Below, one piece after another: positions 23,734 through 58,200 of a stretch of 64,000 nt of DNA. The first letter of the stretch is position 1. Each line of letters begins with the position of its first letter. Below the pieces are notes generated by a model. The model did not search any database. It was given only the letters and a program-made list of their open reading frames with translations, and was not told the DNA's origin. The stretch is from Candidatus Nomurabacteria bacterium. GTDB taxonomy: Bacteria > Patescibacteriota > Minisyncoccia > Phycocordibacterales > UBA5272. The translations under genes were made by a program, and so were the position numbers. The stretch is from the NCBI GenBank assembly GCA_037130925.1, contig JBAXSC010000001.1, positions 176,182-240,181 on the forward strand. Reading direction: 5' to 3'.

Positions 23734-25509
23734 ATGCAAAATATCAGAAATTTCTCAATTATTGCACATATTGATCACGGGAAGTCTACTTTGGCTGACC
23801 GTCTTTTAGAGTTTACTCATACAGTAGAAAACAGAAAAATGAAGAATCAGGTTCTTGATTCTATGGATCTTGAAAGAGAAAGAGGTATTACAATTAAAAT
23901 GACTCCAGTGAGAATGGAATATAAAAATTATATTTTAAATCTTATTGATACTCCAGGACATATAGATTTTTCTTATGAAGTTTCTCGTAGTTTGAGAGCT
24001 GTAGAAGGAGCTTTGCTTTTAGTTGATGCGACACAAGGTGTTCAGGCTCAGACTTTAACAACTCTAGAAATGGCACAAAATGCAGAGCTGACAATTATTC
24101 CTGTTATTAATAAAATAGACTCTCCTATTGCTGACGTGGAAGGTGTAAAAGCACAAATTATAAGTTTATTAAAAATAAAATCAGAAGATATTATTTTAGT
24201 TTCTGGAAAGACTGGTGAAGGAGTAGAAACTTTGCTTGAAGAAATAATTACAAAAATACCAGAACCTAAAATTGAAAAAGTTGAAAAAAAATCTTTCCGT
24301 GCACTTATTTTTGATTTTGAATATTCAAATCACGAAGGAGTTATTTTGTATGTGAGAATTTTAAATGGAAGCGTCAAAAGAAATGACGAATTAACTTTTA
24401 TAAAATCCAAATATAGATTTTTAGTGAGAAATGTCGGAGTATTTAAACCGCAAAAATTAGAAAACAAAGAATTAACAGAAGGCGAAATTGGATACATTGT
24501 GACAGGCATAAAAGAGCCTGGAGTTGCAAGAGTTGGAGATACTGTGACTACTTTTGCTCATCCTCTTCCAGCTTTTGCTGGATATGAAGAACCTACACCT
24601 TTGGTATTTGCTTCTGTATATCCTGAGACTCAAGATGAATTTGATGATTTACGCTCTGCATTATGGAAATTGCGTTTATCTGACTCATCTTTAACTTTTG
24701 AAGAAGAGGCTAGTGGTGCGCTCGGTAGAGGCTTTAGATGTGGATTTTTAGGTATGTTACACCTTGAAATTGTCACAGAAAGACTAAGAAGAGAGTTTGA
24801 TCAAGAATTAATTGTGACTCAACCATCTATTACTTATGATGTGGAATTAAAAGATCGTTCACATGAGAAAGTTTATACTCCTATACATTTTCCAGATCAT
24901 GGATATTATTTATCTGTCAGAGAACCTTGGATTGTTTTAACTATTATTTCTCCTAATGATTATTTATCAAATATGATACAGCTCTTCCAGAGACATGAAG
25001 GAGAGATTTTGGATATGAAAGATTGGGGAGAAAACAGAATTAATATTCAGCTTTCAATGCCTCTCCGTGAATTGATGAGAAACTTTTTTGACGAATTAAA
25101 ATCTGCGTCTAGTGGATATGCTTCTATTTCTTACAAAATGGGCGAAATGCGTGACGCCCAAGTGACTCGTCTCGATGTGTATATTGCCGAAGAAAGAGTT
25201 GCTGCTTTTTCAAGAGTTATACCAGAATACAGAACAGAAGAAGAGTCTGAAGAAGTGGTAGAAAAACTTTTTAAAATTTTACCTAAAGAATTATTTAGAG
25301 TTAAAATTCAAGCAATGGTAAAAGGAAGAATTGTCGCATCAAGATCTATTGCTCCAATGAAAAAAGATGTGACAGGATATCTTTATGGAGGAGACATTAC
25401 TCGTAAAATGAAGCTTCGTGATAAACAGAAAAAAGGTAAAAAGAGAATGCAGAGAGATGGAAAGGTACATATAGAGCATGACACATTTTTACAAATGATG
25501 AAAAAATAA
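23734..25509 (+). CDS. lepA: elongation factor 4 (LepA)
   Basis: IRNFSIIAHIDHGKSTLADRLL. LepA C-terminal domain. 591 aa. Confidence 0.95.
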   Translation: MQNIRNFSIIAHIDHGKSTLADRLLEFTHTVENRKMKNQVLDSMDLERERGITIKMTPVRMEYKNYILNLIDTPGHIDFSYEVSRSLRAVEGALLLVDATQGVQAQTLTTLEMAQNAELTIIPVINKIDSPIADVEGVKAQIISLLKIKSEDIILVSGKTGEGVETLLEEIITKIPEPKIEKVEKKSFRALIFDFEYSNHEGVILYVRILNGSVKRNDELTFIKSKYRFLVRNVGVFKPQKLENKELTEGEIGYIVTGIKEPGVARVGDTVTTFAHPLPAFAGYEEPTPLVFASVYPETQDEFDDLRSALWKLRLSDSSLTFEEEASGALGRGFRCGFLGMLHLEIVTERLRREFDQELIVTQPSITYDVELKDRSHEKVYTPIHFPDHGYYLSVREPWIVLTIISPNDYLSNMIQLFQRHEGEILDMKDWGENRINIQLSMPLRELMRNFFDELKSASSGYASISYKMGEMRDAQVTRLDVYIAEERVAAFSRVIPEYRTEEESEEVVEKLFKILPKELFRVKIQAMVKGRIVASRSIAPMKKDVTGYLYGGDITRKMKLRDKQKKGKKRMQRDGKVHIEHDTFLQMMKK

Positions 25510-25510
25510 A

Positions 25511-25544
25511 AACCAGAAATATATTTCTGGTTTTTATTTTTTTT
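25511..25544. terminator. rho-independent terminator after lepA
   Basis: CCAGAAAT-at-ATTTCTGG perfect stem followed by TTTTTATTTTTTTT. Confidence 0.75.
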
Positions 25545-25551
25545 AATATCT

Positions 25552-25659
25552 TTAGCGTAAAAGAGGTATTAATAAGAATCCAATCATTGCTACAGCCATT
25601 AATACAGCTACGACTTTATATATTCTATCTACGGTCTTTTTATGATGAGTTTTAAACAT
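25552..25659 (-). CDS. possible 35-aa small membrane protein (MFKTHHKKTVDRIYKVVAVLMAVAMIGFLLIPLLR)
   Basis: Short ORF with one TM helix in an otherwise empty intergenic interval. Unverified. Confidence 0.2.
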   Translation of the reverse strand: MFKTHHKKTVDRIYKVVAVLMAVAMIGFLLIPLLR

Positions 25660-33924: not shown

Positions 33925-33975
33925 TTCGAATTTTCTTAACCCTAAAGGGCTCCGACAAAAATTCTTAAGAGTATT
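33925..33975. repeat. conserved 30-nt motif TTCTTAACCCTAAAGGGCTCCGACAAAA embedded in an inverted repeat (copy 2). Likely bidirectional terminator or structured element.
   Basis: Near-identical core to 2446-2477. Flanked by AAAAAATACTCTT…AAGAGTATTTTTTG. Confidence 0.5.
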
Positions 33976-52529: not shown

Positions 52530-52571
52530 TTAAAAAAGCATTACAAAAATCGGTAATGCTTTTTATTTTTT
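52530..52571. terminator. bidirectional terminator
   Basis: AGCATTAC-7 nt-GTAATGCT followed by TTTTATTTTTT. Overlaps the topA stop. Confidence 0.65.
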
Positions 52572-54779
52572 CTCTATTTTATGAGGATTGTGATTTGGAC
52601 AAGCTTTATTTGAACATCTTTCAGGAATAGTTTTTGTACCTTGCATCATTAATTCATGACAAAGATTACAATAATTTCCAGTAGGCTTTGCTTTAATGGC
52701 TAATTTACAATCAGGATAATTTGAACACGAATAAAATACTCCAAATCTTCCACGTCTTTCTTCTATATATCCAGTCTCGCATTTATTACATTTAACTCCT
52801 GTATTTTTCTTTTGTTTTTCTTCTTCAGATTGCTCTATATATTTACATTTTGGATAATTACTACAAGCTACAAATTTTCCAAATTTTCCAGATCTTTCAA
52901 TTAACTTTCCTTTTTCACATTTTGGACAAATCTTTCCTGTATCTTTTGGACCTTCCATTATTTCTCCATCAATTGTTCTGGCGCCAGAGCAATCAGGAAA
53001 TCTTGAACATGATAAGAATTTACCAGACTTGGAAAGTTTTACTATCATCTTTGATTCACAAAGAGGACATTTAATATTTTCTGGAGCTTCACCAAAATTA
53101 TTTGTCTTTTCTATTTTATCTTTGGCTTTTATTTCTTTTTGAAATGGTGCGTAGAAATCTGTTAATAATTTTTTATAAGTTAATTTTCCTTCAGCAACTT
53201 CATCTAATTCATTTTCCATTTCTTTTGTAAAGTCATCAGAGATATATTTTGCAAAATTTTGCTCAAGAAAATCAGATACGACCTCTCCTGTATCAGTAGG
53301 TATAAGTGCTTTATTTACTTTTTCTACATATCCACGATCTTCAATTGTTGAGATTATGGATGCATAAGTAGAAGGACGACCAATATCTCTTTTTTCTAAT
53401 TCTTTAATTAAACTCGCTTCACTATATCTTCCTGGAGGAGTTGTTTCTTTTTCGAGACTTCCTAGAGCTTTTAAATTTAAATCATCACCAGCTGTGAATT
53501 TTGGTAAAGTTACATCTTCACTTTTTCCATCTGGATCAACTTTTAGCCAGCCACTAAATAAAATTACAGACCCATTTACTGAAAAATTTGGATAATCTTT
53601 TTTATTTTTTAAATTTGCTAAAACTTTTGTTCTTAAAAGTTTTGCGTCACTCATCTGTGAGGCTACTGTTCTATTCCAAATTAAATCATAAAGTCTCTTT
53701 TCATCACTATTTGCTCCAACTGATTCTGTATTTACATGTGTAGGACGAATAGCTTCATGAGCTTCTTGAGCATTTTTAGATTTTGCTTTATAAAATCTTT
53801 TTTCTAAATATTCTGGTCCATATCTTTTAAGAATTAATTTTTCTATTTCAAATACAGCAGAAGATGCAAGATTCGTAGAATCTGTACGCATATAAGTAAT
53901 AAAACCTTTTTCGTAAAGTTTTTGTGCTACCATCATTGTCTTTTTTGGAGCAAAGCCAAGTCTACTTGATGCTGTTTGTTGAAGTGTTGATGTTGTAAAT
54001 GGTGCACGAGGAGATGATTTTGCATTTGTTTCTTTTACATCTTTTATTTCCCATTCACTTTCTTTTCCTTCTTTAATTATTTTTTCAGTTAAATTTCTAG
54101 CATCATCTGCACTTAATTCTGGATTAATACCAGGCTCTAATTCACAATCAAAGACTAATTTATATTTCTTAGACTCTTTCATTTTTCCAACAGTCTCTAA
54201 TTCTGCTGAGATATTAAAATAAGTTACAGGAATAAAAGCTCTGATCTCGCGCTCTCTTTCCATAATAATACGAAGAGCAGGTGATTGAACTCTACCAGCA
54301 GAAAGTCCATAACGAACTTTTTTCCAAATTATTCCAGATAAATCATATCCTACCAATCTGTCTAGTACACGACGAGCTTCTTGAGCTTCTTTTAAATTCA
54401 TATCTATCTCACGAGTATTCTTTAATGCCTCTAAAACAGCATCTTTTGTAATTTCGTAAAATACTGCACGTTTTGATTTTTTAAGATCACAAGCTTCACG
54501 TACATGCCAAGCTATCGCTTCTCCTTCACGATCGGGGTCAGTTGCGAGAATTATCTCATCTGCTTTTTTACCTAAAGATCTTATTTCTGAGATAACTTTT
54601 TCTTTTCCTTTTGAAATTTCATATGTAGGAATAAAGCCGTTTTCAATATCGACGGCTTTTTTATTTGATTTAGGGAGGTCTCTCACATGACCTACAGATG
54701 CACGAACTGTATATTCTCCACCTAAATACTTCTCAATAGTCTTTGCTTTGCTAGGGGACTCTACAATTAATAATTTCAT
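52563..54779 (-). CDS. topA: DNA topoisomerase I
   Basis: Toprim N-terminus MKLLIVESPSKAKTIEKYLG, catalytic region …YITYMRTDS…, C-terminal C4 zinc ribbons. Confidence 0.95.
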   Translation of the reverse strand: MKLLIVESPSKAKTIEKYLGGEYTVRASVGHVRDLPKSNKKAVDIENGFIPTYEISKGKEKVISEIRSLGKKADEIILATDPDREGEAIAWHVREACDLKKSKRAVFYEITKDAVLEALKNTREIDMNLKEAQEARRVLDRLVGYDLSGIIWKKVRYGLSAGRVQSPALRIIMEREREIRAFIPVTYFNISAELETVGKMKESKKYKLVFDCELEPGINPELSADDARNLTEKIIKEGKESEWEIKDVKETNAKSSPRAPFTTSTLQQTASSRLGFAPKKTMMVAQKLYEKGFITYMRTDSTNLASSAVFEIEKLILKRYGPEYLEKRFYKAKSKNAQEAHEAIRPTHVNTESVGANSDEKRLYDLIWNRTVASQMSDAKLLRTKVLANLKNKKDYPNFSVNGSVILFSGWLKVDPDGKSEDVTLPKFTAGDDLNLKALGSLEKETTPPGRYSEASLIKELEKRDIGRPSTYASIISTIEDRGYVEKVNKALIPTDTGEVVSDFLEQNFAKYISDDFTKEMENELDEVAEGKLTYKKLLTDFYAPFQKEIKAKDKIEKTNNFGEAPENIKCPLCESKMIVKLSKSGKFLSCSRFPDCSGARTIDGEIMEGPKDTGKICPKCEKGKLIERSGKFGKFVACSNYPKCKYIEQSEEEKQKKNTGVKCNKCETGYIEERRGRFGVFYSCSNYPDCKLAIKAKPTGNYCNLCHELMMQGTKTIPERCSNKACPNHNPHKIEKK

Positions 54780-54892
54780 AAAAAGTTTTAAGTTAAAATA
54801 AAAATAGATTTAAATATAAAAGAAATACAGTAAATTAAATATGTTTTTTATTATAACACGGGAGTATACACGAGATTTTATTTTTTGCAAAA

Positions 54893-55168
54893 TTATAAAG
54901 CAATTGTATGTACAAAATTTATCATAAACAAAAAAATAGATAAAATCAAAACTAGGTTAGCTAGTATATTAAATACATATTCTTTATTCTTAATTTTGTA
55001 CCAAAAATACACTATTAATAAATCAGATATTATGAATACAGTCCATACTGTAATTGGATTATCTAAATATATTCCTCCTGGGTGAGAAATTTGTAAAAAC
55101 ATATACTCTAAAAATATAAATGCAGATGAATTTATTGTCGTTAGTATTATAGAAATTATTTTTTTCAT
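54893..55168 (-). CDS. hypothetical small membrane protein (3 TM)
   Basis: 91-aa ORF. Confidence 0.35.
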   Translation of the reverse strand: MKKIISIILTTINSSAFIFLEYMFLQISHPGGIYLDNPITVWTVFIISDLLIVYFWYKIKNKEYVFNILANLVLILSIFLFMINFVHTIAL

Positions 55169-55261
55169 ATTTGTTTTTCTTCATTATACCACTTTATAAA
55201 AAACAAAAACCATACTTCTTCTTATCTCGTATTATTAATTAAATTAGTAATAATAATAGGA

Positions 55262-55430
55262 AATTTAAGTATGTATGGTTTTAGCTCGAGATGGTCAAAC
55301 ATCCGATAAGCATTAGCTTTTTTACCTATTTTATCCAGCATAAGCATTAGTTTGGATAGGTAAATTTTTAATCGTCGCAGTGACGGCTTGTAAGAACTAG
55401 AAGAGTAGTATAACTCTTTTAAAATTTTTT
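55262..55430 (+). ncRNA. candidate structured small RNA (unclassified)
   Basis: Local GC rise. Stacked hairpins (TTTACCTAT…ATAGGTAAA enclosing TATCCAG…TTGGATA; CGTC-gcagt-GACG; AAGAGT-agtata-ACTCTT followed by TTAAAATTTTTT). Duplicated 11-mer ATAAGCATTAG in loop positions. The overlapping minus-strand 70-aa ORF reads the repeat in two different frames. Confidence 0.3.
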
Positions 55431-55461
55431 GCAAGAAAATTATTTTATAAATAAAAAGCTT

Positions 55462-55490
55462 TGTATTTTTACATACAAAGCCTAAATAAT
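55462..55490 (-). terminator. terminator of the 55499-55789 minus-strand gene
   Basis: GCTTTGTAT-tttttac-ATACAAAGC, with a T-run on the minus strand. Confidence 0.55.
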
Positions 55491-55498
55491 TATTAATT

Positions 55499-55789
55499 TC
55501 AAATTAAAAAGAAATTACAAAAAAAGCTTTTTTTTAATAATATTTCAATTTCTTTTGAAGTATCAGAAAAATTTTTAATTAAAGGATCATTGCGATCATT
55601 AAATTCTTTACCGAATGAAATTTTCCCACATTTAATTTCATTGGCCAGCTTTTTTGTTTTTCTAGATATTATCTTTAATTTAAATATTTTTATCCATATT
55701 ATAAAAATAATAAATGGATTTTTTACTATTATTTCCATTGAAAATATTTTATTTGTTTTTAAATAAATTTTACTTATATAGTATAACAT
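55499..55789 (-). CDS. hypothetical protein
   Basis: 96-aa ORF. Confidence 0.35.
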   Translation of the reverse strand: MLYYISKIYLKTNKIFSMEIIVKNPFIIFIIWIKIFKLKIISRKTKKLANEIKCGKISFGKEFNDRNDPLIKNFSDTSKEIEILLKKSFFCNFFLI

Positions 55790-55809
55790 TTATTATTACT
55801 AAGTCAAGT

Positions 55810-58200
55810 TTATTTTGCGTATTCTGTCGCTTGATCAAATTTAATTGAAAGTAATTTTGAACATCCTTCTGATCCGACAGTCACACCATAAAGCACATCA
55901 CACTGATTCATTGTTTCTCTATTGTGTGTAATAACTAAAAGCTTTGACTTCTCTGAAAGTTTCTTGATCATTTTTCCATATCTTCTCGCATTTGATTCAT
56001 CAAGAGCAGCATCTGTCTCATCTAGCACCATAAATGGTGGATGATTTATTGAGCTCATAGCAAAAATAAGAGCAATAGAGGAGAGCGCTCTTTCTCCACC
56101 AGAAAGCATTTGAAGATCTTTAACTTTCTTTTCTGGAAGATTCACAGAAATTTCTATACCTGGCTCTCTTTGTTTTCCTTCATCAATATCATCATCTTCT
56201 CCATTTTCATTTGGAATTTTGGCTGTGATTTTTTCTAAAGCAAGAGAAGCTTTTCCTCCTTGGAAAATCTCATTAAAATAATTATTGAAATTAAAATTAA
56301 TTTGTTCTAATCCAGAATTAAATTCTAACAATAAAGAATCTTTCAAATCTTTAATTAAATTTTCTAAGCTTAATCTGGTATTTTCAAGATCGTTTATTTC
56401 AGTTGAAAGGAAAGTGTCTCTTTCAGAAAGATTTTTATATTCTTCCATAATATCTCCAGCATTAATGATTCCACTTTCTTCAATTTTAATTTTACTTCTC
56501 TCGACTTTACGAAGAAGATCATGTTGATTGATATTTAAAATATTTCTCTCATTTTCATCAGCTTCATTTTCATTCCAATTTTTATATTTAAAAGCAGAGC
56601 TTCCGATCAAAACACTCATTTCTTTTAATAAGTTTTCAAATTCATTTTCTTGCTCTAGAAGTCTGTCAGTTTTCATTCTTAGAGAATCTTTTTGTGAGTG
56701 AAGCTTTTCTAATTCCAATCTTAAAGTAAGGACTTTATTATCAAGCTTATAAGTTTTTTCTTTTTCTTCATTTTCTAATTTAGTTTTTTCTTCTCTTTTT
56801 GAATTAATATTATTGAGTAATATTTCTCTTTCTTGATTTAATTTGTCTAATTCTTCTTTTTTAAAATTAGATTTTTCTTCTAATTTATCTATTTCTTTTT
56901 GTTTATCTTCTTCTCTTTGTTCTATCTTTTTATTTTCATCTTCATGTCTAATCTTTTTAATAAAATCTTTTTCTTCTAAACTGGCTTTTTCTAGATCAGA
57001 TTTTAATTCTGAATATTTTTGTGATTCATATAAAGAGAAAATATTATTCCAAAGAGTTTCTCTTTTTCCTTCAAAAGAAGAAAGTTCATTTTTCTCAATA
57101 AAATATGTTTCAAATTCTTTTTTTACTTCTTCAATATTTAAATTTTTATTCTTTAAAATTTCTTCTTGTTTATTTTTTAAGAATTTTATTTCAAGATCAA
57201 GATTAACTGATTCTTTATAAAACTCATCACGATTTCTGTTTAAATTAGAAAGCTTTTCATTTTCAATATTTATTTGAGAATGGAGTTCTATTAAAAGATT
57301 TTTTAAATGCCCGTTTATAGATTCTCCTGATTGCTCTTGGTTAATTTTTTGAGAATTAAGTAAGAATAATTCATTTTCTAATGAAATTATAGTTTCTTCA
57401 AAATTTTGATGATGACTTAACTCTTCTTTTTTAATTAAAATCTCTTTATCTTCTTTATGTAAATAAACTTTTAATAGAGAAGTCATTGAATTTATTTCTT
57501 CTTCTCTTTTTTCTAATTCTTTTACTTGTTTTTTAAGGAAATTTAAATGAGGAATATTTTCTCTTCTTAATAAATCAATTTCTTGTAAATGATTTTTAAC
57601 TTTATCAAGCTTCTTTTCTCCTTCTTTGATACGCATATGATAAATACGAAGTCCAAGAGCGTCTTCTATCATTTCTCTTCTGTCATTATTATTTGAAAGT
57701 AGAATTCTATCAGCTTCACCTTGATTTACTATTGTATGTCCTGAGGCTGAGATATTTGCCATAGCGAGGAGCTCTTGTACGTCTTTAAGACGAACTTTTG
57801 TACCATTGATTAGATATTCGCTTGATCCGTCAGTAAAGATCTCTCTAGTCAAAATAATCTCATCAAGATTAATAAAGTTTAAAAGAGTATCATTGATCTC
57901 TGAATTTTTACTTAATAATTTTTCATTTATATTCTTATCTGAATTATCTAAATGAATAGAAACACTAGCGCGAGAAAGAGGAGATAAAAAAGAAGATCCT
58001 TTGAAAATCAAATCACTTCCAGATTTTGAACGAAGACCTTTCATCGATTGCTCTCCAAGCACAAATCTTATAGCTTCTGCTACATTTGATTTACCGGATC
58101 CATTTGGACCAACAACCCCAGTGACACTACTAGAAAGATCAATGTTTATTTTTTTAGCAAAGCTTTTAAAGCCTTGCATACTAATAGATTTTAAATACAT
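55810..58200 (-). CDS. smc: chromosome segregation ATPase SMC (compact, 796 aa)
   Basis: N-terminal Walker A GPNGSGKSN, long coiled coils, C-terminal LSGGERALSSIALIFAM…VLDETDAALD signature and D-loop. Confidence 0.85.
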   Translation of the reverse strand: MYLKSISMQGFKSFAKKINIDLSSSVTGVVGPNGSGKSNVAEAIRFVLGEQSMKGLRSKSGSDLIFKGSSFLSPLSRASVSIHLDNSDKNINEKLLSKNSEINDTLLNFINLDEIILTREIFTDGSSEYLINGTKVRLKDVQELLAMANISASGHTIVNQGEADRILLSNNNDRREMIEDALGLRIYHMRIKEGEKKLDKVKNHLQEIDLLRRENIPHLNFLKKQVKELEKREEEINSMTSLLKVYLHKEDKEILIKKEELSHHQNFEETIISLENELFLLNSQKINQEQSGESINGHLKNLLIELHSQINIENEKLSNLNRNRDEFYKESVNLDLEIKFLKNKQEEILKNKNLNIEEVKKEFETYFIEKNELSSFEGKRETLWNNIFSLYESQKYSELKSDLEKASLEEKDFIKKIRHEDENKKIEQREEDKQKEIDKLEEKSNFKKEELDKLNQEREILLNNINSKREEKTKLENEEKEKTYKLDNKVLTLRLELEKLHSQKDSLRMKTDRLLEQENEFENLLKEMSVLIGSSAFKYKNWNENEADENERNILNINQHDLLRKVERSKIKIEESGIINAGDIMEEYKNLSERDTFLSTEINDLENTRLSLENLIKDLKDSLLLEFNSGLEQINFNFNNYFNEIFQGGKASLALEKITAKIPNENGEDDDIDEGKQREPGIEISVNLPEKKVKDLQMLSGGERALSSIALIFAMSSINHPPFMVLDETDAALDESNARRYGKMIKKLSEKSKLLVITHNRETMNQCDVLYGVTVGSEGCSKLLSIKFDQATEYAK

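Follow-up and report, generated by a model that had tools for sequence, protein, structure and literature searches.

The SMC–topA locus

We analyzed a 64,000-nucleotide stretch of a Candidatus Nomurabacteria genome (hereafter the window), a Patescibacteria genome fragment with a GC content of 27.6%, and in particular an interval at positions 55262–55430 that a first-pass annotation had put forward as a candidate small RNA. The interval lies in the gap between the SMC gene and topA, in a neighborhood (SMC, orf96, the interval, orf91 and topA) in which every gene is on the minus strand. The features that frame it are the following.

58200..55810, minus strand: SMC gene, first in the minus-strand reading order
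54900..55808, minus strand: replaceable block specific to this strain, filling the slot from the SMC stop codon to the topA promoter
54779..52563, minus strand: topA, with relA/spoT next in the reading order

The block is 909 nucleotides (nt) long and holds orf96, a terminator, the candidate interval and orf91. Relatives of the locus were collected with TopA as the anchor and comprise 80 loci from species-representative genomes (best TopA identity 78%), 80 metagenome loci, and 21 loci of closer relatives obtained via the protein database, 20 of them with 83–90% TopA identity and one, L206, with 99.2%. Among the close relatives the gene order SMC, gap, topA, relA, parB is maintained, and the slot between SMC and topA contains from zero to five unrelated small open reading frames (ORFs). 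The gap of L204 and L205 is solely the 119-nt promoter region; there is one ORF of 37 amino acids (aa) in L201, one of 130 aa in L200, two ORFs each in L169, L162 and L202, and five in L172. The TopA of L206 is 99.2% identical to that of the window at the amino acid level, and the flanking DNA is 93–95.5% identical at the nucleotide level. Homology between the two ends exactly at the SMC stop (55809) and restarts at 54899; the slot of L206 is filled by 493 unrelated nt, which code for a soluble protein of 125 aa that has its own terminator.

Searches with positions 55222–55434 by blastn, tblastx and nhmmer gave no match in the 80 genome loci, the 80 metagenome loci or the 20 close-relative loci with 83–90% TopA identity. 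These searches were sensitive enough, since they picked up the region upstream of topA (54895..54793) and the orf96 terminator hairpin (55487..55438) in those same loci. The same three programs revealed no paralogue of the interval within the window, phages and plasmids yielded nothing by blastn or tblastn, and a single-sequence covariance model (R1) of the minus-strand core recovered only the query itself in 807 kb. The sole other copy found is on a 100% identical Logan contig from the same organism, which is present in SRR12676973. With this other copy identical, the comparison of related genomes for covariation suggested in the first-pass annotation ends with the absence of the interval from them, even from L206. 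As no relative has a counterpart, including L206 with its whole block replaced, these sequence comparisons let us conclude with good confidence that the interval is accessory DNA peculiar to this strain, located in a cassette hotspot, and not a conserved structured RNA.

The SMC–topA gap, compared between the window and L162, L166, L169, L172 and L200–L206, is a precise replacement hotspot. The edges of the slot adjoin −35-like motifs, one TTGACA-like after SMC and one of the form TT(T/G)(A/C)CAAAAAAT before topA. A scan of viral contigs for the paired 11-mer described below returned 25 matches, all of them tandem repeats within coding sequence (Ala/Asn/Tyr-rich) and unrelated to the locus. 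The possibility that an orf91-family paralogue decayed into the interval was rejected, as the hidden Markov model of that family scores about 0 in all six frames.

Hairpins, repeat and folding of the interval

The structural elements of the interval, from low to high coordinates, are as follows.

55290..55303: GATG/CATC mini hairpin, −3.9 kcal/mol
55306..55316: first copy of the 11-mer ATAAGCATTAG, found by sequence reading and a repeat search
55321..55364: interrupted 13-bp hairpin, TTTACCTA...TAGGTAAA and ATCCA(G)/(T)TGGAT, about −10 kcal/mol on either strand
55340..55350: second copy of the 11-mer ATAAGCATTAG, in the loop of the 55321..55364 hairpin
55373..55385: CGTC-GCAGT-GACG mini hairpin, about −4.4 kcal/mol
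55401..55418: AAGAGT/ACTCTT hairpin, −8.3 kcal/mol on the plus strand and −5.4 kcal/mol on the minus strand

The duplicated 11-mer is real, and the match extends to 13/14 nt with a spacing of 34 nt. A direct repeat of 11 nt has a P value of 0.0095–0.0275 against dinucleotide shuffles, and an exact repeat of at least 11 nt is present in 5.5% of all 169-nt windows of the 64 kb. Both copies had been described as loop-proximal; of the two, only the second lies in a loop. The hairpin around the second copy, originally read as a nested 15-bp stem, does exist, but it has 13 bp, in two segments with a 4-nt bulge between them. The CGTC...GACG hairpin is present as described, though weak. The annotation had also listed a terminal AAGAGT-AGTATA-ACTCTT hairpin followed by a T-run. 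The hairpin is there, at 55401–55418, but it is weaker than any native terminator of this genome, and the T-run (TTTTAAAATTTTTT) is interrupted and lies partly inside the stem. Read on the minus strand, the 6-nt loop of this hairpin (AGTATA on the plus strand) gives TATACT, the −10 hexamer of the promoter-like site B described below.

The GC content of the interval is 31.4%. This exceeds the 11–20% of the flanking spacers, in line with the claim of a GC content clearly above background, but it is only the 72nd percentile of all 169-nt windows. Such a value is ordinary coding-level GC and a weak argument for a structured RNA gene. The folding z-score of the interval is −2.0 for the plus strand and reaches −3.5 for the minus strand, where folding is the more significant; across the tested versions the plus- and minus-strand values range from −1.4 to −2.4 and from −2.3 to −3.5, respectively, and the core on the plus strand (−1.35) is not significant. 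The window-wide background has a mean z of −0.47 with a standard deviation of 1.41, and 5% of windows are at or below −3. Neighboring 170-nt windows reach z-scores of −6.0 and −5.6, ranked 2nd and 4th of 750, because of the hairpins at 55206–55282 and 55456–55483, both of which lie outside the coordinates of the interval. We conclude with good confidence that the interval is a real, moderately structured piece of the replaceable cassette block.

Predicted transcription signals on the minus strand

Two promoter-like sites and a candidate terminator bear on how the interval might be transcribed.

55434..55407, minus strand: site B, promoter-like, TTGCAAAAAAT-N11-TATACT, an exact second copy of the boxes and spacing of topA site A
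54863..54890, minus strand: site A, upstream of topA, TTGCAAAAAAT-AAAATCTCGTG-TATACT followed by TGTTATAAT, kept in relatives with 83–99% TopA identity
55198..55282, minus strand: long AT-rich imperfect hairpin with U-tract, candidate terminator, about −18 kcal/mol, minus-strand tail UGUUUUUU

The arrangement TTGCAAAAAAT-N11-TATACT occurs twice in the 64 kb, both times on the minus strand, where 0 occurrences are expected. Sites A and B have their boxes and spacing in common, and the sequence of the 11-nt spacer differs. Since only the boxes and the spacing are shared, a maintained promoter fits better than mere duplication does. The TTGCAAAAAAT promoter of L201 comes directly after the terminator hairpin; in the window 544 bp lie between them, flanked by the repeated TTGCAAAAAAT. 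On the plus strand, the promoter scan reported no promoter-like site between 54946 and 55514.

The AT-rich hairpin is 77 nt long, with two 32-nt arms (55282..55251 and 55237..55206) that are 75% complementary and enclose a 13-nt loop. As the orf96 unit has its own terminator and orf91 its own promoter, this hairpin and its U-tract would serve only transcripts from site B. Native terminators in the window are perfect 10–16 bp hairpins between an A-tract and a U-tract, and with both tracts flanking the stem they can act bidirectionally. The proposal of a small RNA thus stands in part: promoter-like and terminator-like signals bracket the interval and a transcript is possible, but these predicted signals favor the minus strand over the plus strand, and any transcript is more likely to be read from the minus strand.

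Coding potential of the open reading frame

One long ORF crosses the interval.

55222..55434, minus strand: 70-aa ORF with a TTG start, within a 93-codon stop-free frame (to 55503)

The first-pass annotation correctly listed this as the only long ORF and correctly noted that the two repeat copies are read in different frames. Its use of the frame difference as an argument against coding does not carry, as that difference has no bearing on coding and the 93-codon stop-free frame is itself longer than chance. The ORF length of 70 aa compares with 33.5 ± 11.3 in dinucleotide shuffles (P = 0.008).

The sequence does have the non-coding look ascribed to it. The codon log-odds of the ORF are −0.258 bits/codon, compared to +0.33 ± 0.11 for long genes and −0.30 for spurious shadow ORFs, and its three-periodic Markov score of −0.328 bits/codon is under those of all 172 in-frame chunks of real genes. 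GC at the first, second and third codon positions is flat (0.32/0.25/0.28) compared to real genes (0.40/0.30/0.16), so that the third-position value (GC3) is about 3 standard deviations too high. No homologue was found among 5.8 billion clusters / 1.84 billion representatives in either word-indexed or exhaustive HMMER searches, and tblastn against phages and plasmids was empty. The single phmmer match, to the 2009-aa tandem-repeat protein P0122, is an artefact that sums more than 20 weak repeat matches. The TTG start coincides with the −35 box of site B and lies 22 nt past a terminator. The 70-aa ORF is thus probably not a native gene, and the codon statistics make a non-coding RNA the more likely product than a peptide.

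Interpretation of the interval

Our leading explanation, which we put forward tentatively, is that the interval makes up the body of a minus-strand transcript, independent and about 200 nt long, that would more probably be non-coding than coding. Transcription would start about 7 nt downstream of site B (55434..55407), run through four weak hairpins and stop at the AT-rich hairpin and U-tract (55282..55198), short of the TGGTATAAT promoter of orf91, so that the predicted minus-strand unit would have its ends near 55400 and 55200. The hairpins seen on the plus strand would then be best explained as largely the complement of the promoter region and the internal stems of this unit.

Several observations weigh against such a transcript. 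The z-score of the whole interval falls within the 3–12% tail of the window background, and the individual stems are weak. Promoter-like sites with 9 of 12 matches occur at chance frequency in AT-rich DNA (12 found, 10.4 expected), and site B could be the −35 half of an ancestral topA promoter left by an insertion. The AT-rich hairpin is long and imperfect, unlike the native terminators, and was not called in a terminator scan of 1.2 kb, in which the hairpin at 55456..55483 was the sole call. The 93-codon stop-free run (P = 0.0015 against shuffles) is unexpected for a non-coding RNA. No second, diverged copy was found among the loci searched, and the interval is dispensable, given its absence from a relative with about 95% flanking identity.

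Nearly as likely as the minus-strand transcript is the possibility that the interval is a functionless by-product of cassette turnover, either filler or a truncated 3' gene fragment from donor DNA that was brought in with orf91. The hairpin and U-tract would then be the terminator of the lost gene, site B the leftover half of a topA promoter, and the small stems incidental. The absence of the interval from every relative, even at 99% TopA identity, and the unrelated ORFs, zero to five in number, that occupy this replacement hotspot are what such turnover would leave. The stop-free frame ends (TAA, 55224–55222) within the hairpin that precedes the U-tract, like the 3' end of a gene, and it has no credible start, as its TTG is a −35 box 22 nt past a terminator; the coding-level GC and the weak stems agree with a gene remnant as well. 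On the other hand, a decaying fragment in a genome of 27% GC should gain stop codons fast, yet 93 codons are open, and the frame shows neither coding periodicity nor a homologue. Simple insertion also leaves unexplained why TATACT follows TTGCAAAAAAT at the exact spacing.

It is unlikely that the frame encodes a small orphan protein, basic and helical, of 41 aa from the internal AUG at 55347 or of up to 70 aa from the TTG. The open frame far exceeds shuffled sequences in both ORF length and stop-free run, it has the top coding score of the six frames, and the first AUG of the predicted transcript is in frame with it. The missing Shine–Dalgarno sequence is no counter-argument, since only one of the 51 ORFs of at least 150 aa in the whole window has such a motif upstream. 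AlphaFold2 gives a helical model with five helices, there is a weak match to the Mga helix-turn-helix (E = 0.043), and the accessory neighbors orf91 and orf96 likewise score low on the native coding model. Yet the codon and Markov scores lie under every tested chunk of real genes, GC3 is far too high, two exhaustive searches returned no homologue, and the predicted local distance difference test score (pLDDT) of the model is only 62. Nor was the ORF called as a gene on the identical Logan contig, and the sequence upstream of the AUG is C-rich, unlike genuine starts in this genome. Gene starts in the window are ATG after almost pure A/T.

A cis-acting 5' leader or attenuator of orf91, in which transcripts from site B either stop at the AT-rich hairpin and U-tract or read through, is improbable. 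The order of a promoter, about 200 nt of structured RNA, a hairpin with U-tract and an ORF 30 nt further on is the classic attenuator layout. However, orf91 is served by an extended −10 promoter of its own, and in relatives such a promoter is all that precedes its homologues, without a long leader; in addition, no riboswitch or leader family was matched in Rfam, and no alternative antiterminator pairing was identified.

We also considered how the block may have arrived. The 544-bp segment made up of the interval and orf91 might be a mobile mini-cassette with its own promoter that entered the topA promoter at its TTGCAAAAAAT core through Campbell-type recombination. Two hybrid promoters would result, one of them driving a strain-specific regulatory RNA. 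We regard this chain of events as conceivable, with a low probability.

The least probable reading, and a very doubtful one, is a plus-strand small RNA (about 55262–55430) that ends at the AAGAGT hairpin and T-run and whose loop motifs sequester a protein in the manner of CsrB/RsmZ: the hairpin is indeed stronger on the plus strand, with T-rich sequence after it, and windows that include the flanking hairpins reach the z-scores of −6.0 and −5.6, but the plus strand has no promoter-like site upstream, the terminal hairpin is below native terminator strength with an interrupted T-run, the core does not fold significantly, the two motif copies stand in non-equivalent structural contexts and lack GGA, and there is neither an Rfam match nor conservation.

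Comparison with known RNA families and systems

At the gathering score, Rfam 15 identified only eight tRNAs in the whole window, and ARAGORN found no tmRNA. The Infernal/Rfam check proposed in the first-pass annotation yielded no family even at E ≤ 10: in the region 55100–55600 nothing was matched in the core, and the permissive scan returned a chance-level U7 snRNA (14 bits, E = 1.8) at 55403–55429 and three chance-level matches beyond 55428. As far as these sequence models reach, we conclude with good confidence that the interval belongs to no known RNA family.

The interval resembles CsrB/RsmZ in having several consecutive hairpins and a recurring short motif. It differs in that ATAAGCATTAG is present in only two copies, without GGA; that GGA occurs once on the plus strand and twice on the minus strand, never in the A(N)GGA form; and that the better transcription signals are on the opposite (minus) strand. 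In the 64-kb window, no CsrA-like signature came up in a crude search for motifs in six frames. The CsrB/RsmZ-type logic suggested earlier is therefore not borne out.

Type III toxin–antitoxin loci have a tandem array of complete 34–45 nt direct repeats before the toxin gene. The minus-strand order of promoter-like site, repeat with a 34-nt period, hairpin with U-tract and protein gene is ToxIN-like. In contrast to ToxIN, CptIN and TenpIN, only 13–14 of the 34 nt are repeated, and only twice; Tandem Repeats Finder reports no array at the locus, and the downstream orf91 is a small membrane protein with its own promoter and not an RNase of the ToxN/AbiQ type.

TIGR-Tas systems have been reported in the Candidate Phyla Radiation (CPR)/Patescibacteria (PMC12045711). 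TIGR arrays consist of two alternating 8–12-nt repeats with 9-nt spacers, usually in 5–15 units, with UG...CCA boxes and beside a Tas gene with a Nop domain (PMC12045711). The likeness lies in the host group and in short repeats (about 11 nt) with a period of about 34–36 nt, after which comes a terminator-like hairpin. The interval differs in having one repeat type in two copies, no UG...CCA boxes and no array, and its neighbors are SMC, TopA and three small ORFs without a Nop domain.

As in Rho-independent terminators and attenuators, the hairpins at 55456–55483 and 55206–55282 both lead into a U-run on the minus strand; the former is a typical native terminator, and the latter is unusually long and imperfect. 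There is also a parallel in layout with orphan, strain-specific bacterial small RNAs and small ORFs on flexible genomic islets, which share with this locus a fixed slot between two conserved core genes, here SMC and topA, with content wholly different between close strains, and short units each with their own promoter-like and terminator-like signals. The locus differs from such islets in that there is no recombinase or mobility gene near the slot and in that the transcript is a predicted one only.

Three further candidates were considered. 6S RNA and signal recognition particle (SRP) RNA were rejected, since the fold branches into several short stems instead of forming one long hairpin with a central bubble, and a GNRA or GGAA helix-8 motif is missing. 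The third was an integron attC site; inspection by eye showed none of its GTTRRRY/RYYYAAC boxes, and there is no integrase nearby.

Neighboring accessory genes

The interval is flanked by two small accessory genes and their signals.

55499..55789, minus strand: orf96, orphan ORF (96 aa), also a called gene in the identical Logan contig (L161)
55456..55483, minus strand: orf96 terminator hairpin, AGGCTTTGTAT-GTAAAA-ATACAAAGCTT with U-run, −12.8 kcal/mol, typical native terminator
55183..55191, minus strand: orf91 promoter, TGGTATAAT extended −10, 14 nt before the orf91 ATG and directly after the AT-rich hairpin
54893..55168, minus strand: orf91, small three-helix membrane protein with the motif SW-x-x-YKK-x-x-Y-x-F

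The coding score of orf96 is marginal; a promoter-like site, TTGACT-16-TATACT, is located at 55807..55780. One possibility, that orf96 and the open frame downstream are a single frameshifted gene, was rejected: stop codons 3 nt apart lie between the two frames, which cannot be joined by any single indel. The orf96 terminator hairpin is 100% identical over 33 nt to one in L201 and 82–92% identical to hairpins in L169 and L198. The 33-nt identity of this AAGCTTTGTAT-N6-ATACAAAGCTT hairpin holds between genomes with TopA only 84% identical. Its sites are 55456–55483 in the window, 1856–1883 in L201, and 1912–1939 and 2355–2382 in L169, with further ones in L198 and L199; there are one or two per gap, and they occur in the SMC–topA gap only. 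From this distribution the hairpin appears to travel with the cassettes.

The NCBI entry for orf91 is a hypothetical protein from a Candidatus Nomurabacteria metagenome-assembled genome, under which TopA (MEI6352561.1) is listed as well. ORFs in the corresponding gap of L172, L202 and L162 match orf91 weakly over the full length, and a family alignment could be built. We regard orf91 as a real gene of a fast-evolving family. The family consists of multi-helix membrane proteins of 56–161 aa that share the motif SW-x-x-YKK-x-x-Y-x-F and vary in copy number in the SMC–topA gap. Further members are listed here.

L172, 754–1074, 1556–2041 and 2056–2364: orf91-family members
L202, 1263–1484 and 1534–1881: orf91-family members
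L006, 3379–3549: orf91-family member

In the three loci whose upstream sequence was inspected (the window, L202 and L006), the (T)GGTATAAT extended −10 sits 9–14 nt upstream of the ATG, which implies a nearly leaderless mRNA. Because family members carry their own (T)GGTATAAT promoter, orf91 does not need the interval as a leader. Searches of PADLOC, PHROGs and NCBIfam gave nothing significant for orf91, orf96 or the 70-aa ORF, and the orf91 family as a whole has no match in Pfam, PADLOC or NCBIfam.

Other structured elements in the window

Two observations concern DNA elsewhere in the window. The exact 28-nt sequence TTCTTAACCCTAAAGGGCTCCGACAAAA occurs twice on the plus strand, at 2449–2476 and 33933–33960, with 0 occurrences expected by chance. 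Each copy lies at the center of its own long intergenic hairpin; the outer stems are not the same in the two hairpins, yet they remain complementary. The sequence has no convincing Rfam match; possible readings are a small structured element that is repeated, or a terminator family with a conserved loop. The strongest folding z-score in the 64 kb, −8.6, belongs to positions 25422–25591 on the plus strand, which cover the terminator region after the ORF at 23734–25509 and a second, adjacent hairpin.

Significance of the locus

As a candidate RNA the interval matters little, being an unconserved orphan of weak structure with no assignable family. Confirmation of the minus-strand transcript would place it among the very few candidate regulatory RNAs of Patescibacteria. 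The SMC–topA gap as a replacement hotspot in this Nomurabacteria lineage is possibly a more useful by-product of the analysis than the candidate RNA, as the slot differs even between genomes with about 95% flanking identity. A second possibly useful by-product is the set of fast-evolving three-helix membrane proteins of the orf91 type that, with their own TGGTATAAT promoters, populate the gap. Should the mini-cassette origin of the 544-bp segment hold true, the SMC–topA slot would represent a previously undescribed site of cassette exchange, with crossovers at promoter −35 regions.

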